This document shows positions 19,901 to 38,410 of a stretch of 64,000 nt of DNA, piece after piece. Below the pieces are notes generated by a model that made no database searches, was not told the origin of the DNA, and saw only the letters and a list, made by a program, of their open reading frames with translations. Each line of letters opens with the position of its first letter. The stretch's first letter is position 1. This stretch comes from Bacteroidota bacterium. GTDB taxonomy: Bacteria > Bacteroidota > Ignavibacteria > UBA10030 > UBA8401. The DNA lies in NCBI GenBank assembly GCA_028749215.1, contig JAQUOA010000001.1:7379-71378 (forward strand). Reading direction: 5' to 3'. A program made the translations under genes and the position numbers.

Positions 19901-21283
19901 ATGCCATTCCAACGCCGCTCATGGGCTGAACCATTCAAAATTAAAGTTGTTGAACCATTGACAATGACCACTCGCGAAGAACGCGAGAAACATATTACCG
20001 AAGCCGGATATAATACTTTTCTTCTCAAGTCGAAAGATGTGTACATCGATCTCTTGACTGACAGCGGAACCAATGCTATGAGTGATAATCAATGGGCTGG
20101 TATGATGATGGGTGATGAAGCGTATGCAGGAAGCGTCAACTATTATCATTTAGAAGAAAAAGTTCAGGAGTTCTACGGGTATAAATTTCTTGTCCCGACT
20201 CATCAAGGACGAGGGGCAGAACATATTATTTCCAAAATATTAATCAAGCCGGGCGATTATGTCCCGGGAAATATGTACTTCACAACTACCAGATTGCATC
20301 AAGAATTAAATGGCGGAAAATTTGTTGATATCATTATTGATGAGGCACACGATTCTCAAAATCTCCATCCTTTCAAAGGTAATGTCGATTTACAAAAATT
20401 AGAAAATTTGATTACGAAAGTCGGCGGGAAAAAAATTGCTTACGTCACAATCGGCGCAACCGTGAATATGGCGGGGGGCCAGCCAATTTCGATGGAAAAC
20501 TTACGACAGGTACGAGCATTAACTTCGAAACACGGAATTAAAGTGGTGCTTGATGCAACTCGCGCGATGGAAAACGCTTATTTCATCAAACGGCGAGAAA
20601 AAGGTTATGAAAATAAATCGATAAAAGAAATTTTGCTAGAGATTTGCTCGTATTCCGACGCGGCAACCATGAGCGGAAAAAAGGATTTGCTTGTCAACAT
20701 CGGCGGATTTCTTGCGCTCAACGATAATGATGTTTTTGAAGAAGCAAGAAACATGGTGGTTGTGTATGAGGGGTTACATACATATGGCGGTCTTGCCGGT
20801 CGTGATATGGAAGCCATGGCTCGCGGTATTGTGGAGGCGTGTCAAGTAGATCACCTACAAGCACGCATCGGTCAGATAGAATATGTCGGAAACCGTCTGA
20901 TAGAGCTTGGGATTCCGATTGTTAGACCGATTGGCGGCCACGCAATTTTTTTGGATGCAAAACAATTCTATCCGCATCTTGAGCAATTAAAATTCCCTGC
21001 ACAGACACTTGCCGCGGAATTATATTTGGATTCAGGAATTCGATCGATGGAACGAGGTATTGTTTCAGCCGGACGGAATAAAGAAACCGGCGATCATTAC
21101 TATCCTAAGCTTGAATTGGTACGGCTTACATTCCCTCGTCGTGTTTACACTCAAGCGCACTGTGATGTTACTGTTGAGTCGGTGTACGAAGTATTTCAAA
21201 ATCGGAATAACGTGCGCGGTTTAAAAATGGTGTACGAGCCGAAATATTTGCGGTTCTTCCAAGCAAGATTTGATAAACTTTAA
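19901..21283 (+). CDS. tpl: Tyrosine phenol-lyase (beta-eliminating lyase family, PLP-dependent)
   Basis: The 460-aa ORF has an AGGAG RBS 8 nt upstream. Its sequence is strikingly close to enterobacterial tyrosine phenol-lyase as I recall it ([44 protein letters not shown]; NMYFTTTR; GIRSMERGI; C-terminal LRFFQARFD). It is distinct from the tryptophanase-like paralog at 37016. Confidence 0.75.
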
Positions 21284-21284
21284 A

Positions 21285-21326
21285 ATAAAAAATGACCGTC
21301 ACGACTAAGGTGACGGTCATTTACTT
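21285..21326. terminator. Bidirectional rho-independent terminator between the convergent tpl and OMP genes
   Basis: An 11-bp perfect stem atgaccgtcac/gtgacggtcat (21293-21303 / 21311-21321) with a 7-nt loop has an A-run on the 5' side and a T-rich tract on the 3' side. Confidence 0.6.
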
Positions 21327-21332
21327 AAACAA

Positions 21333-22109
21333 TTACCAGCCGAAAAATCCAAACATAATTCCCGCATTGATCGTGTATCCATTGGCTTTTATTTTCGATG
21401 GAACACCGTCAAGCGTGAATTTGTCATCAAGCTTCCAATCCGGACTGAAGAAAATCGGATATCCTGCACCTACACGTAACTGCAGCCATGTCAGAAGCGT
21501 ATATTCCACACTTACGTGAGGATTAAAAACACCAAATGATCCTGTAAGATGTCTTGTATAATTTCCTGATGCACTACTTACATCTCCATATTTATTCCAC
21601 AAATCGGTCCAATCTTTAAAGGATCCGTCGTCGCGAGTCATCCTAACGTTAATACTGCCGCCTCCAATTGAAGCACCAAGAGCAACATCTACTTTGTATG
21701 TTACCGGAACCACATAGTCGACTAAAAAACCGCCGTACGAAATTCCATATTCCACTTCTTTCTTAAGAGTACCGCCCCCACTATTTTGCAGCAAACTTAC
21801 GGTTCGAGACCCACTGACACCAAAACCACCCATGCGGACATTTTTTATAAACATAATATATCCATACCCTTCGCCACCTATTAAATACACCGGATCTGTG
21901 CCAAGTTTAGGAAGTCCGGCATTTCCCAAGAACTTATCAAGTCCGGCATTGTCAAACATCGTAACAATTGGAGTCACTCCACCAGCTCCTCCTATCTTTG
22001 TCCGAAGAGGGTGAGAATATTCCTTTTCGGGTTCAGTTCCTTCTTCTTGCGCAAAAAGTGGAATTGAAAATACTACAATGACAAAAAAAAATGAAAATAA
22101 TTTTTTCAT
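21333..22109 (-). CDS. Small outer-membrane beta-barrel protein (OmpA-like/porin-like), hypothetical
   Basis: The start is moved from the ORF-track Met (22145) to the internal Met that begins a signal peptide (MKKLFSFFFVIVVFSIPLFAQ). The protein has alternating hydrophobic beta-strand pattern, is Gly/Tyr-rich, and ends ...GFFGW. Confidence 0.6.
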   Translation of the reverse strand: MKKLFSFFFVIVVFSIPLFAQEEGTEPEKEYSHPLRTKIGGAGGVTPIVTMFDNAGLDKFLGNAGLPKLGTDPVYLIGGEGYGYIMFIKNVRMGGFGVSGSRTVSLLQNSGGGTLKKEVEYGISYGGFLVDYVVPVTYKVDVALGASIGGGSINVRMTRDDGSFKDWTDLWNKYGDVSSASGNYTRHLTGSFGVFNPHVSVEYTLLTWLQLRVGAGYPIFFSPDWKLDDKFTLDGVPSKIKANGYTINAGIMFGFFGW

Positions 22110-36140: not shown

Positions 36141-36159
36141 CGTGGTTGAGTCCCTTTTA

Positions 36160-36861
36160 TTAAATGTTAAATGATGAATATATAATTACACTGAGATAAA
36201 AAATTCCTACGGCTACTGTAGAGACAATACATAAGCTTACAATAAATTTTATTCGATGTACCATCGAAATACCAATCGCACCTAAAAGAATACTCCATGC
36301 TACGCATATTCCATCCATCCCTGTCAAAATCAAGTAGACACTCGGCTTTACTTCGTAGCCGCTCGGACTTGTGGAAAAAATATACAATCCGAGCGATGCT
36401 AATTCAATTGGAAGAACAAACACAACCGATATCATTATGGGTACGAGCGACCAGCCGATGATGCCGTATGTTTCCTTCCAGCTTCCTTTTCCAAAAACAA
36501 TTTTTGCACAAAGATAAATACTGGTAGTCAGTGCAAAAAAAAACGGTAAACTTATGATAACTCCCAAAACCGTACCATGGAACAATAACGGGAGTAAATT
36601 GTCGTAATTATTGCCGGATTTTTTACTCCACATCAGAACAAAGAAAATGCCGATGCCTGAAAACAATGCTATCAAGAGAACAAAATTTTTATGTTCTGCA
36701 AGAATAATTTTTTTGAACGCATGCTTTGGCGACTCAATGATCATCCAAATCATTGCAAAAAAATCAAGCGTCGGAACACGGTCCTGTATGTAACTGCTGC
36801 ACGATTCGCATGTAATCGCAAATTCGTCATTAGAATGTTTGCATACCGGACAAACTATCAT
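36160..36861 (-). CDS. Membrane protein with an N-terminal zinc ribbon (Yip1-like topology)
   Basis: The 233-aa ORF has an N-terminal CxxC...CxxC motif (CPVCKHSNDEFAITCESCSSY) followed by about 5 TM helices. Confidence 0.55.
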   Translation of the reverse strand: MIVCPVCKHSNDEFAITCESCSSYIQDRVPTLDFFAMIWMIIESPKHAFKKIILAEHKNFVLLIALFSGIGIFFVLMWSKKSGNNYDNLLPLLFHGTVLGVIISLPFFFALTTSIYLCAKIVFGKGSWKETYGIIGWSLVPIMISVVFVLPIELASLGLYIFSTSPSGYEVKPSVYLILTGMDGICVAWSILLGAIGISMVHRIKFIVSLCIVSTVAVGIFYLSVIIYSSFNI

Positions 36862-37015
36862 CGTGGATAAAAATACAAAGAAATGAGCGGGCTTGCAATG
36901 AAAATTAATGAAGAGACAAGAGAAGAGTTTTTGTAAGACTTATTAAATTTCTTGATTTTCCCTGATACAAGTGTTAAGAATTATTATTTAAGGTGTGCCA
37001 TCTTTAGACCTCAAT

Positions 37016-38410
37016 TTACATCATTTTAAAATGCGCCGTAAAATGTCGCAGTTGGGGTGCTTCATAAGTAATCTTATATCCCTTCAGTGTATTTCGCCGT
37101 TGGAACACTTCAATTACAACTTCACTGACATAATCAATGTGGCTTTGGGTGTATACTCGACGCGGAATTGCAAGCCGAACAAGCTCCATTGGTGGTGAAA
37201 TGAGTTTCCCGTCCTTCCCATATTTCCCAAACATAACACTTCCTATTTCCACGGACCGAATCCCCCCTGCTTGGTAGAGTTCTGCAACTATAGCCTGTCC
37301 CGGATATTGGTTTGGTGGAATATGAGGAAGAAAATTTTTTGCATCAATATATATTGCATGTCCCCCCGGCGGTTGAAGAATCGGCACGCCTGCGTCGGTT
37401 AATTTATTACCGAGATATTCTACTGAGCGAAGACGGTATGTGAGATAATGTTCATCAAGAACTTCTTCAAGCCCTTGGGCAATCGCTTCAAGGTCGCGTC
37501 CCGAAAGTCCGCCGTATGTTGGAAATCCTTCAGTGATTATTAATAGATTGCGAGCATTGGTTGCAAGAGTGTCATCATTGAGTGCAAGGAATCCTCCCAT
37601 ATTAACAATCGCGTCTTTTTTTGCACTCATTGTTACACCATCAGCGTAGGAAAACATTTCTTGAGCAATTTGTAACGGACTTTTATCGGCGTATCCCCTT
37701 TCCCTTTTTTTAATAAAGAAAGCATTTTCCGCAAAGCGGCACGCATCGAGGAAAAGAGGAATGTTATATTTCCTGAGCAAGGTTTTCGTATCGCGGATGT
37801 TCTTCATTGAAACAGGTTGACCGCCGCCGGAATTGTTTGTGACAGTGATGAAACATGCCGGAATATTTTTGGCACCTGTTTTTTTTATAAAATTTTCTAA
37901 TGCAGGAATATCCATGTCTCCTTTAAATGGAGCAATCACCTCAGGTTGTTTTCCTTCTTCGGTAGGGAAATCAACCGCTTCTGCACCGCTAAATTCAACA
38001 TTCGCTCGCGTTGTGTCGAAGTGTGTGTTGTTTGGGATGTATTTTCCTTTTCCGCCGATGAGGGTGAAAATAATTTTTTCTGCCGCCCTGCCTTGGTGCG
38101 TTGGAATGATAAATTTCATCCCTGTAATTTTTTTTACTGCAGCTTCAAACCGAAAAAAACTTCTGGCGCCCGCATAAGATTCATCACCTTCCATCATGCC
38201 GGCCCACTGCTTTGCACTCATCGCCGCTGTTCCGCTGTCAGTAAGAAGATCAATTAACACATCTTCGGCCCGAATCAGAAAAGGGTTGTAATAGGCCTCT
38301 TTCAGTATCCGTGTGCGCTCTTTTTGCGTTGTGAAGCGAATTGGTTCTACTGATTTAATTTTAAACGGCTCAATAATAGTTTTCATATGAAAGGCTCTAT
38401 TCGGAATCAT
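37016..38410 (-). CDS. tnaA: Tryptophanase (tryptophan indole-lyase), a beta-eliminating lyase family paralog
   Basis: The 464-aa ORF has C-terminal segments that closely resemble enterobacterial TnaA as I recall it (GGHAIYIDAKNFLPHIPPNQYPGQAIVAELYQAGGIRSVEIGS...LRHFTAHFK). It has the PLP-lysine region SAKKD and is about 50% identical to the tpl-like gene at 19901. Confidence 0.75.
   Translation of the reverse strand: MIPNRAFHMKTIIEPFKIKSVEPIRFTTQKERTRILKEAYYNPFLIRAEDVLIDLLTDSGTAAMSAKQWAGMMEGDESYAGARSFFRFEAAVKKITGMKFIIPTHQGRAAEKIIFTLIGGKGKYIPNNTHFDTTRANVEFSGAEAVDFPTEEGKQPEVIAPFKGDMDIPALENFIKKTGAKNIPACFITVTNNSGGGQPVSMKNIRDTKTLLRKYNIPLFLDACRFAENAFFIKKRERGYADKSPLQIAQEMFSYADGVTMSAKKDAIVNMGGFLALNDDTLATNARNLLIITEGFPTYGGLSGRDLEAIAQGLEEVLDEHYLTYRLRSVEYLGNKLTDAGVPILQPPGGHAIYIDAKNFLPHIPPNQYPGQAIVAELYQAGGIRSVEIGSVMFGKYGKDGKLISPPMELVRLAIPRRVYTQSHIDYVSEVVIEVFQRRNTLKGYKITYEAPQLRHFTAHFKMM

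Follow-up and report, generated by a model that had tools for sequence, protein, structure and literature searches.

The closest described counterparts of the two genes considered here are the tyrosine phenol-lyases (TPLs) of Citrobacter freundii and Erwinia herbicola and the tryptophanases (TnaA) of Escherichia coli and Proteus vulgaris. Five positions that discriminate TPL from tryptophanase have been listed (PMC5805759), and the roles of Arg381, Thr124, and Phe448/449 in TPL are taken from a review of that enzyme. In structures of P. vulgaris tryptophanase, Asp-133 together with His-458 makes a network of hydrogen bonds to the indole NH, and the H458A replacement brings kcat down to 1.6% (PMC11301627). 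The reference layout of the E. coli tna operon is tnaC-tnaA-tnaB. Both tryptophanase and TPL activities have been reported for Symbiobacterium thermophilum, and both pathways have been predicted in the literature for Alistipes, a genus of the Bacteroidota. The literature that we searched contained nothing specific on Ignavibacteria with tryptophanase, TPL, or indole, and no assayed enzyme from either of the Ignavibacteria clades described below.

Here we analyze a stretch of 64,000 nucleotides of contig JAQUOA010000001.1 (the window), which derives from a MAG of the class Ignavibacteria (placed by GTDB in the Bacteroidota) and in which an earlier note had recognized a TPL-like gene (ORF1) and a tryptophanase-like gene (ORF2). 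We consider it very probable that these genes encode two PLP-dependent beta-eliminating lyases that diverged long ago, were inherited vertically, and differ in aromatic specificity, namely, a predicted TPL and a predicted tryptophan indole-lyase.

Results

Gene boundaries. Both reading frames were present as described, and only the start of ORF2 required correction, from 38410 to 38386 (Table 1). The longest ATG-initiated frame of ORF2 spans 37016-38410 (-) and would encode 464 aa; its ATG sits within the upstream apt gene, the stop codon of which occupies 38397-38399, and GenBank protein P0122 and all close ORF2 orthologues are 456 to 457 aa long and begin MKTIIEPF. Translation therefore most likely begins at ATG 38386, 10 nt past the apt stop, rather than at 38410. 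The exact proteins of both genes are already known in GenBank: P0001, identical to ORF1, is named "tyrosine phenol-lyase," and P0122, identical to ORF2, is named "tryptophanase."

Table 1. Coordinates of the two lyase genes and of adjoining features in the window
Feature	Position	Strand	Basis
FAD-linked oxidase and Fe-S/CCG protein gene pair (GlcD/GlcF-like), divergent from tpl	17076..19795	-	PF01565/PF02913, PF02754/Fer4
Shine-Dalgarno-like AAGGAG, 5 nt upstream of the tpl ATG	19890..19895	+	Direct sequence reading
tpl, predicted tyrosine phenol-lyase gene (ORF1), 460 aa	19901..21283	+	ATG ORF, TIGR02618 match
Terminator-like hairpin, 13-bp stem, between convergent tpl and a 270-aa ORF	21290..21322	-	
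tnaA-like gene, predicted tryptophanase (ORF2), 456 aa from ATG 38386	37016..38386	-	NF009709 match and pocket signature
apt-like phosphoribosyltransferase gene, directly upstream of tnaA	38397..38930	-	PF00156
Terminator-like hairpin, 16-bp stem, between the glutamine synthetase III gene and apt	38994..39029	-	

ORF1 and its setting. The reading of ORF1 as a TPL was upheld, with the activity itself predicted from similarity and conserved residues. It exceeded the cutoff of the NCBIfam TPL equivalog model TIGR02618 (788.9 bits; cutoff, 720.7), gave a gapless alignment with C. freundii TPL 1tpl (E about 1e-200), and was 63 to 64% identical to the crystallized Citrobacter and Erwinia enzymes. 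Pocket residues of both ORFs were mapped through solved homologues at 53 to 64% identity in gapless alignments. The phenol-pocket signature of ORF1 is T128/L292/M383/R385/F452, four residues of which match Thr124, Met379, Arg381, and Phe448 of TPL, the equivalent of Met288 being Leu (L292). The catalytic set, K261, K260, Y75, R104, N189, D218, R221, and R408, is complete; the TPL counterparts are Lys257 (PLP), Lys256, Tyr71, Arg100, Asn185, Asp214, Arg217, and Arg404. The TLMRF signature was present in all of the 120 closest orthologues, with invariant catalytic residues.

Transcription of tpl looks monocistronic. The hairpin that follows the gene was scored by the hairpin scan on the minus strand, where a T run succeeds the stem, and because the stem is palindromic it could also act on tpl. 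The FAD-oxidase/Fe-S pair adjoins tpl in the same divergent layout at loci L003, L004, L007-L009, L092, and L095-L096 and was kept in each relative inspected; we sought a biochemical link between this pair and TPL and found none, and we regard it as a conserved neighbor only.

ORF2. ORF2 is best read as a tryptophanase, again as a predicted activity. It passed the "tryptophanase" subfamily model NF009709 (690.6 bits; cutoff, 285) and failed both tryptophanase equivalog models, TIGR02617 (529.4 bits; cutoff, 825.8) and the Porphyromonas-type NF053783 (571.8 bits; cutoff, 750). To judge by their names and cutoffs, the equivalog models describe particular tryptophanase lineages, so that these failures put ORF2 outside those lineages and leave the activity possible. 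Against TIGR02618 it scored 568 bits, about level with the tryptophanase equivalog models and below the TPL cutoff, which ORF1 alone passes. Its identity was 44 to 53% to solved tryptophanases and 47 to 48% to TPLs; taken as a whole, its sequence is equally close to TPL and to TnaA. The match to the C-terminal block of tryptophanase that had been noted for ORF2 therefore gives less ground for the assignment than it suggests, since the score of the whole sequence is as near to TPL as to TnaA.

In the 464-aa numbering, the indole-pocket signature of ORF2 is D132/F296/V387/I389/H456, which agrees with D137/F304/V394/I396/H463 of E. coli at five of five positions and is also that of P. vulgaris. 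The catalytic set (same numbering), K265, K264, Y79, R108, N193, D222, R225, and R412, is likewise complete, with Lys270 (PLP), Lys269, Tyr74, Arg103, Asn198, Asp227, Arg230, and Arg419 as the TnaA counterparts. Thus, neither ORF carries the disrupted active-site Lys or Arg that would have pointed to a noncatalytic paralog, and the proposed inspection of specificity residues found the TPL set in ORF1, except for Leu at Met288, and the tryptophanase set in ORF2. The DFVIH signature occurred in 120 of 120 closest orthologues, again with invariant catalytic residues. The public names of these orthologues alternate, JGI using TPL for some and tryptophanase for others.

Relationship of the two enzymes. 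In BLASTP, ORF1 and ORF2 shared 225 of 455 residues (49%) without gaps (E = 2e-167), in keeping with the earlier estimate of about 50%, and Pfam family PF01212 (Beta_elim_lyase) matched both at E values of about 1e-78. All five discriminating pocket positions differ between them. They are old paralogs, as had been proposed, because ORF1 is nearer to Citrobacter TPL (64%) than to ORF2 (50%). In a neighbor-joining tree (76 sequences, 435 columns, bootstrapped), ORF1 fell inside a 16-sequence T-x-M-R-F clade with the crystallized TPLs 1tpl, 1c7g, and 9j3u (bootstrap, 75), within which Leu, Phe, and Met are all found at position 288. ORF2 fell outside it, in a seven-sequence clade of its own (bootstrap, 100) that includes no anchor enzyme, and the nodes joining this clade to other Asp...His sequences had bootstraps of 29 or less. 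The phylogeny therefore separated the two as the earlier note expected, but it did not fix the deeper placement of ORF2. The GC content of tpl and tnaA (42 to 43%; GC3, 37 to 39%) is the same as that of neighboring genes, and recent horizontal transfer was rejected on this ground together with the synteny conserved in relatives.

Distribution. The earlier view that the pairing is uncommon, and unexpected for a T9SS-bearing bacterium of the FCB group, was not borne out. Coordinates place the two genes on a single contig, 17 to 72 kb apart, for at least four related MAGs, and one of those four contigs is labeled as a 4.2-Mb chromosome. At least 575 stretches of species-representative genomes were confirmed to carry the tryptophanase orthologue, and among the best 80 of these the titles were nearly all of Ignavibacteria-class MAGs; Symbiobacterium and Alistipes offer precedents, the latter within the Bacteroidota. 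The pair is real and ordinary: the existing annotation of both genes already says as much, and within the class Ignavibacteria their joint presence is standard.

Expression context. The apt and tnaA genes lie on the same strand and are likely cotranscribed. A gene for a Yip1-domain membrane protein lies downstream of tnaA, and other nearby genes encode M28 and PD40 peptidases, a T9SS-tailed protein, glutamine synthetase III (GSIII), and an AsnC/Lrp regulator. A Trp/Tyr permease gene (tnaB, tyrP) was absent from 13.6 to 43.7 kb, where the larger ORFs were compared with Pfam or matched by synteny; no tnaC-like leader peptide was found near either gene and no TyrR-like regulator near tpl or tnaA, and the only Rfam matches in the window were two tRNAs, with no riboswitch linked to either gene. 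ORF2 thus has neither the leader peptide nor the linked permease of an E. coli-type tna operon; expression of tpl and tnaA is not E. coli-like, and a functional operon or regulon for either gene, with no permease, leader, or regulator nearby, was rejected. We also considered whether the order AsnC-GS-apt-tnaA-Yip1 is a conserved module coupling ammonia release to glutamine synthetase. The adjacency of apt and tnaA was found at 14 of 79 class-wide loci, in the closest relatives only, and GSIII lay within 3 kb at 7 of 71; the arrangement is therefore local synteny, and no such module was accepted.

Discussion

We suggest that ORF1 would convert L-Tyr to phenol, pyruvate, and NH3 and that ORF2, as a tryptophan indole-lyase, would convert L-Trp to indole, pyruvate, and NH3. 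In both enzymes, the PLP lysine would form the internal aldimine, the substrate would be taken to a quinonoid, and the leaving ring would be protonated by the equivalent of Tyr71/74, with specificity probably set by the pocket. The Thr and Arg of ORF1 would hold the phenol hydroxyl and its Phe-Phe pair would strain the ring, and in ORF2, Asp, itself held by His, would hydrogen bond to the indole NH. Pyruvate and ammonia released from peptide-derived aromatic amino acids most likely enter the central metabolism of a proteolytic heterotroph; phenol and indole would be by-products that may also act on neighboring organisms.

That the two genes share one specificity, as two TPLs or two tryptophanases acting as redundant isozymes, is scarcely credible: their 49% identity, equal length, and gapless alignment, together with the 568 bits of ORF2 on the TPL model, are what such a pair might present, but this is contradicted by the pocket, which differs at every discriminating position, as well as by the TPL equivalog cutoff that ORF1 alone passes, by the separate clades of the tree, and by the fixation of each signature across 120 orthologues. 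Somewhat less improbable, although we still give it little credence, is the notion that ORF2 belongs to an uncharacterized clade of beta-eliminating lyases with a main substrate other than tryptophan, such as a substituted tryptophan, cysteine or S-alkyl-cysteine, or another aromatic amino acid, and that "tryptophanase" is a label at the subfamily level. Its scores below both TnaA equivalog cutoffs, its naming solely by the broad NF009709, its equidistance from TPL and TnaA, the poorly supported deep nodes, and the alternating names of its orthologues are all compatible with this notion. The pocket, however, is that of the E. coli and P. vulgaris enzymes at five of five positions and is kept in 120 of 120 orthologues, binding of the indole NH falls to its Asp and His, and the equally distant solved "tryptophanases" 8sij (DFCIH) and 8sbg (DYCIH) vary more than ORF2 does.

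A different question is what the pair was selected for. Aromatic amino acid catabolism to pyruvate and ammonia is most likely the main role, to judge from the general context; a comparison of class-wide loci for apt and GSIII adjacency yielded no conserved functional operon to back it. Alternatively, indole and phenol could have been selected as signals or toxins, or the reverse reactions for salvage into Trp and Tyr, with catabolism secondary. Indole is a well-known bacterial signal, the TPL and tryptophanase reactions are both reversible (for tryptophanase, PMC5805759 cites Watanabe and Snell, 1972), relatives throughout the class have kept the pair, and neither gene is linked to a catabolic operon or permease. 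We nevertheless regard this alternative as unlikely: no sequence feature points to signaling, no receptor or regulator is conserved beside tpl or tnaA, the apt-tnaA and AsnC-GS linkages are restricted to close relatives, and the neighborhood consists of housekeeping or proteolytic genes.

With predicted TPL and tryptophan indole-lyase as the preferred assignments, function is predicted for a set of orthologues whose names are inconsistent across public pipelines, and Ignavibacteria would be expected to release indole and phenol during peptide degradation, with relevance to aromatic-compound cycling and interspecies signaling in anoxic sediments, groundwater, and wastewater systems. The significance is modest, and no new biochemical or mechanistic question is opened. 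A more tentative possibility, which we think somewhat less probable than its converse, is that the DFVIH clade of ORF2 constitutes a putative distinct lineage of tryptophanases, accompanied across the whole class by a Leu288 TPL. If this is so, abundant heterotrophs of sediment, groundwater, and sludge would be an overlooked environmental source of indole and phenol, and the kinetics or substrates of their enzymes could differ from those of the enterobacterial enzymes.

Among known systems, the TPLs of C. freundii and E. herbicola (1tpl/2ez1, 1c7g; TIGR02618) are closest to ORF1, which is 63 to 64% identical to them without gaps over residues 5-455 and keeps the PLP and catalytic residues and the equivalents of Thr124, Met379, Arg381, and Phe448/Phe449. 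It departs from them in the Leu at Met288, fixed in 120 of 120 closest orthologues, in having neither a TyrR-type context nor a tyrosine permease nearby, and in its host, an uncultured Ignavibacteria-class bacterium and not an enterobacterium. The TnaA proteins of E. coli and P. vulgaris (2oqx, 1ax4; TIGR02617) are identical to ORF2 in the five-residue pocket and in the catalytic residues, but overall identity is 44 to 47%, the score of ORF2 is far under the equivalog cutoff, and its locus is devoid of the tnaC leader and tnaB permease; furthermore, ORF2 is without the stretch of some 10 residues that these proteins have inserted ahead of the FDTT motif and thus aligns gaplessly to TPL instead of to TnaA. 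The best PDB match of ORF2 is "Tryptophanase 1" 8sij (53% identity, 491 bits), which, with "Tryptophanase" 8sbg, shares its compact length and Asp...His pocket, whereas Val394 is replaced by Cys in both and Phe304 by Tyr in 8sbg; ORF2 is below the cutoff of the Porphyromonas type (572 versus 750 for NF053783), and the neighbor-joining tree showed no well-supported clade uniting them. Symbiobacterium thermophilum resembles this bacterium in combining tryptophanase with beta-tyrosinase (TPL) in one nonenteric organism, but it belongs to another phylum, and its enzymes have been purified and cloned, whereas those described here are known from sequence alone.

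Two paralogous beta-eliminating lyases

ORF1 (tpl) and ORF2 (tnaA) both match the beta-eliminating lyase family PF01212 in Pfam and align with each other gaplessly from end to end (225/455 identities, 49%; E = 2e-167, pairwise alignment), in keeping with the roughly 50% identity claimed in an earlier note. The positions claimed for the two genes also hold, except that the start of ORF2 should be shifted: the listed ATG at 38410 falls within the upstream apt-like gene (stop codon, 38397-38399), and the corresponding GenBank protein, P0122, like every close orthologue, has 456 to 457 aa and the N-terminus MKTIIEPF, so that the true start is most likely the ATG at 38386. 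AAGGAG sits five bases 5' of the ORF1 ATG.

Features of the window and tpl-tnaA pairs located by coordinates in four relatives
Feature	Sequence	Coordinates or separation	Strand	Remarks
ORF1 (tpl)	window	19901-21283	+	460 aa, ORF listing
ORF2 (tnaA), as listed	window	37016-38410	-	464 aa, ORF listing
tRNA gene	window	10796-10880	-	Rfam match
tRNA gene	window	25008-25080	-	Rfam match
1119-aa protein	window	13622-16981	-	only Pfam match, C-terminal Por_Secre_tail (T9SS sorting domain)
FAD-linked oxidase (PF01565/PF02913) and 4Fe-4S/CCG protein	window	17076-19795	-	divergent from tpl; resembles GlcD/GlcF or D-lactate dehydrogenase
270-aa ORF	window	21333-22145	-	convergent with tpl; translation ends ...GFFGW; no Pfam match
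Type III glutamine synthetase	window	39047-41173	-	708 aa; between AsnC/Lrp regulator and apt, here and in nearest relatives
tpl-tnaA pair	ERZ25039540 contig_22821 (461,792 bp)	about 72 kb apart		
tpl-tnaA pair	CAVYWA010000005.1 (690,394 bp)	about 72 kb apart		
tpl-tnaA pair	OY970334.1 (4,235,171 bp)	about 70 kb apart		titled 'chromosome: 1'
tpl-tnaA pair	WBUG01000001.1, isolate SB10	tpl 216,851-218,236; tnaA 235,873-237,240		

Substrate specificity of ORF1 and ORF2

ORF1 scored 788.9 bits on the NCBIfam equivalog TIGR02618 (cutoff, 720.7) and was 63 to 64% identical to each of three tyrosine phenol-lyase (TPL) chains at E values of about 1e-200, aligning gaplessly with Citrobacter freundii 1tpl and with 9j3u and matching Erwinia herbicola 1c7g across residues 5-454. 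Residues were mapped by alignment to C. freundii TPL and Escherichia coli tryptophanase (TnaA; from NC_000913.3), and the catalytic Tyr71, Arg100, Asn185, Asp214, Arg217, Lys256, Lys257, and Arg404 are all kept. Five positions differ systematically between TPL and tryptophanase (PMC5805759); ORF1 carries the TPL residue at four of them (Thr124, Met379, Arg381, and Phe448), with Leu replacing Met288. In TPL, Arg381 is the general base, Thr124 fixes the phenol hydroxyl, and Phe448/449 strains the substrate (reviewed in PMC10170061). Since T-L-M-R-F occurs in 120 of the 120 closest ORF1 orthologues and position 288 is Met, Leu, or Phe among other members of the TPL-type clade, the leucine is no defect. 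We assign ORF1 by sequence as a TPL.

Overall similarity leaves ORF2 ambiguous. The sole model that it passed was the broad 'tryptophanase' subfamily NF009709 (690.6 bits; cutoff, 285); it fell under both tryptophanase equivalog cutoffs (TIGR02617, 529 versus 826; NF053783, 572 versus 750) and scored about equally on the TPL model (568; cutoff, 721). Its top PDB match was 8sij, 'Tryptophanase 1' (491 bits), with TPLs next at 484 bits, and identities were 44 to 53% to tryptophanases and 47 to 48% to TPLs. This ambiguity is mirrored in the split in JGI names for ORF2 orthologues, some called 'tyrosine phenol-lyase' and others 'tryptophanase'. An ORF1 orthologue in an NCBI MAG, P0068, bears the name 'Tryptophanase'.

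The pocket of ORF2 reads Asp/Phe/Val/Ile/His, equivalent at all five positions to E. coli Asp137/Phe304/Val394/Ile396/His463; the same string is found in Proteus vulgaris tryptophanase and in 120 of the 120 closest ORF2 orthologues, so that the five-residue signature parts the two orthologue groups cleanly. In crystal structures of the Proteus enzyme, Asp-133, held by His-458, accepts the indole NH hydrogen bond, and the H458A variant keeps 1.6% of kcat with Trp (PMC11301627). The catalytic residues of ORF2 are all intact. It is because of these pocket residues, and not through grouping in a tree with any assayed tryptophanase, that the assignment of ORF2 as a putative tryptophanase is supported.

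A neighbour-joining tree (Kimura-corrected distances, 76 sequences, 435 columns, 100 bootstraps) was built from seven references (six PDB chains and E. coli K-12 TnaA), full-length 50%-identity cluster representatives found on searching 1.84 billion proteins, and sequences closely related to one or the other ORF. In this tree, ORF1 fell within a 16-member clade (bootstrap, 75) that includes all three TPL anchors and has T-x-M-R-F in every sequence, whereas ORF2 lay outside it in a seven-member clade of its own (bootstrap, 100); deeper nodes tying ORF2 to other Asp...His sequences had bootstraps of 29 or less. The division into one TPL and one tryptophanase proposed in the earlier note is thus supported by pocket residues and by separate clades, with both active sites undisrupted.

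Among the top-scoring cluster representatives, P0241-P0247, P0249, P0251, P0262, P0295, and P0315 are proteins of 800 to 930 aa, from outside the window, with two tandem beta-eliminating-lyase domains. Compared with C. freundii TPL, the four examined (P0241-P0244) have a TPL-like C-terminal half (52 to 58% identity) and a divergent N-terminal half (35 to 44%). P0241, the only one of these sequences read, contains FTTTR, MERG, and LRFF motifs and, in its N-terminal half, SAKEG in place of the family SAKKD. They may represent natural fusions into a pseudo-dimer or, alternatively, errors of gene calling.

Genomic context and likely role

With a 105-nt spacer upstream and a 13-bp hairpin downstream, tpl looks monocistronic. 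The FAD-oxidase/Fe-S-CCG pair lies beside it in every relative inspected (loci L003, L004, L007-L009, L092, L095, and L096) and is a conserved neighbour; any functional tie to TPL would be hypothetical. The position of the 270-aa ORF is taken in L095/L096 by a 254-aa protein without a Pfam hit on record and in L007-L009 and L092 by a ThiF-rhodanese/ThiS/JAB/PALP sulfur-carrier cluster.

The gap from apt to tnaA is 10 nt; upstream of apt come a 16-bp hairpin and then the genes for glutamine synthetase III and AsnC/Lrp. We rejected the AsnC/Lrp-GSIII-apt-tnaA order as a functional module, as only the nearest relatives keep it (apt adjoins tnaA in 14/79 loci). In more distant relatives (L006; L010, 1015-2448), a 477-aa GSI-type enzyme and an enoyl-CoA hydratase occupy the syntenic position; one glutamine synthetase type looks to have been replaced by another in place. 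ORF and Pfam scans around tpl and tnaA, and an Rfam scan of the 64-kb window, revealed no leader peptide, aromatic amino acid permease, or riboswitch; the two tRNA genes were the only Rfam matches.

The wider neighbourhood encodes M28 and PD40-repeat peptidases and a T9SS sorting-domain protein, the last consistent with the claim that the organism bears a T9SS; an S8 peptidase with the same Por_Secre_tail occurs in the syntenic neighbourhood of L003. Given this context and the known chemistry of both families, the role of the two lyases is most likely catabolic: peptide-derived Tyr and Trp would be converted to pyruvate and ammonia, with release of phenol and indole, respectively. The products may instead serve a signalling or toxin role, or the reverse reaction may act in salvage, but the sequence offers nothing in favour of either, and we prefer the catabolic role.

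Occurrence of the pair and known systems

GenBank already has proteins identical to those of ORF1 and ORF2 (P0001 and P0122), annotated as tyrosine phenol-lyase and tryptophanase and encoded on a 73,040-bp contig from a MAG named 'Bacteroidota bacterium'. The two families, what determines their specificity, and the fact that one organism can have both are likewise already known; our small additions are the Leu at position 288 in Ignavibacteria TPLs and the complete tryptophanase pocket of an inconsistently labelled orthologue group.

When one genome per species was scanned, at least 575 stretches were confirmed to encode ORF2 relatives. The best 80 of these were 74 to 84% identical, most being titled Ignavibacteria, Ignavibacteriales, Ignavibacteriaceae, Melioribacteraceae, Ignavibacterium sp., or Melioribacter roseus and the remainder bearing generic Bacteroidota/Bacteroidetes titles or Chitinophagaceae, Chitinophagales, or Acidobacteriota labels. 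Six loci titled 'uncultured Chitinophagaceae bacterium', 'uncultured Chitinophagales bacterium', or 'Acidobacteriota bacterium' (L014, L015, L020, L024, L028, and L074) have a tnaA 77 to 82% identical to that of the window, and the first four keep the Ignavibacteria-type apt-tnaA-Yip1 synteny; mislabelled taxonomy or contamination during binning probably explains these titles.

Besides the four tabulated pairs, of which that of SB10 shares the ~17-kb layout and neighbours of the window, ORF1 and ORF2 matches on equal-sized contigs (726,895, 131,841, 64,994, and 36,777 bp) suggest four more candidates, the sameness of the contigs being inferred. Since pairs recur on single contigs of relatives and neither gene departs from its surrounding genes in GC or GC3, the pair is stable, vertically inherited, and recurrent among the closest relatives, and no oddity of one genome. 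The description of such a pair as uncommon, and as unexpected for a T9SS-bearing FCB-group bacterium, is not borne out by this recurrence or by the predominance of Ignavibacteria-class titles among the best 80 ORF2 relatives, and known systems point the same way. Outside Ignavibacteria, Symbiobacterium thermophilum provides a precedent for both enzymes in one organism, being described as a tryptophanase producer from which a beta-tyrosinase (TPL) gene was cloned, according to entries in the reference list of PMC10170061. Within Bacteroidota, the genus Alistipes is predicted to have pathways to indole and to phenol by an in silico survey in which Bacteroidetes outscored Firmicutes for both (PMC5682003).
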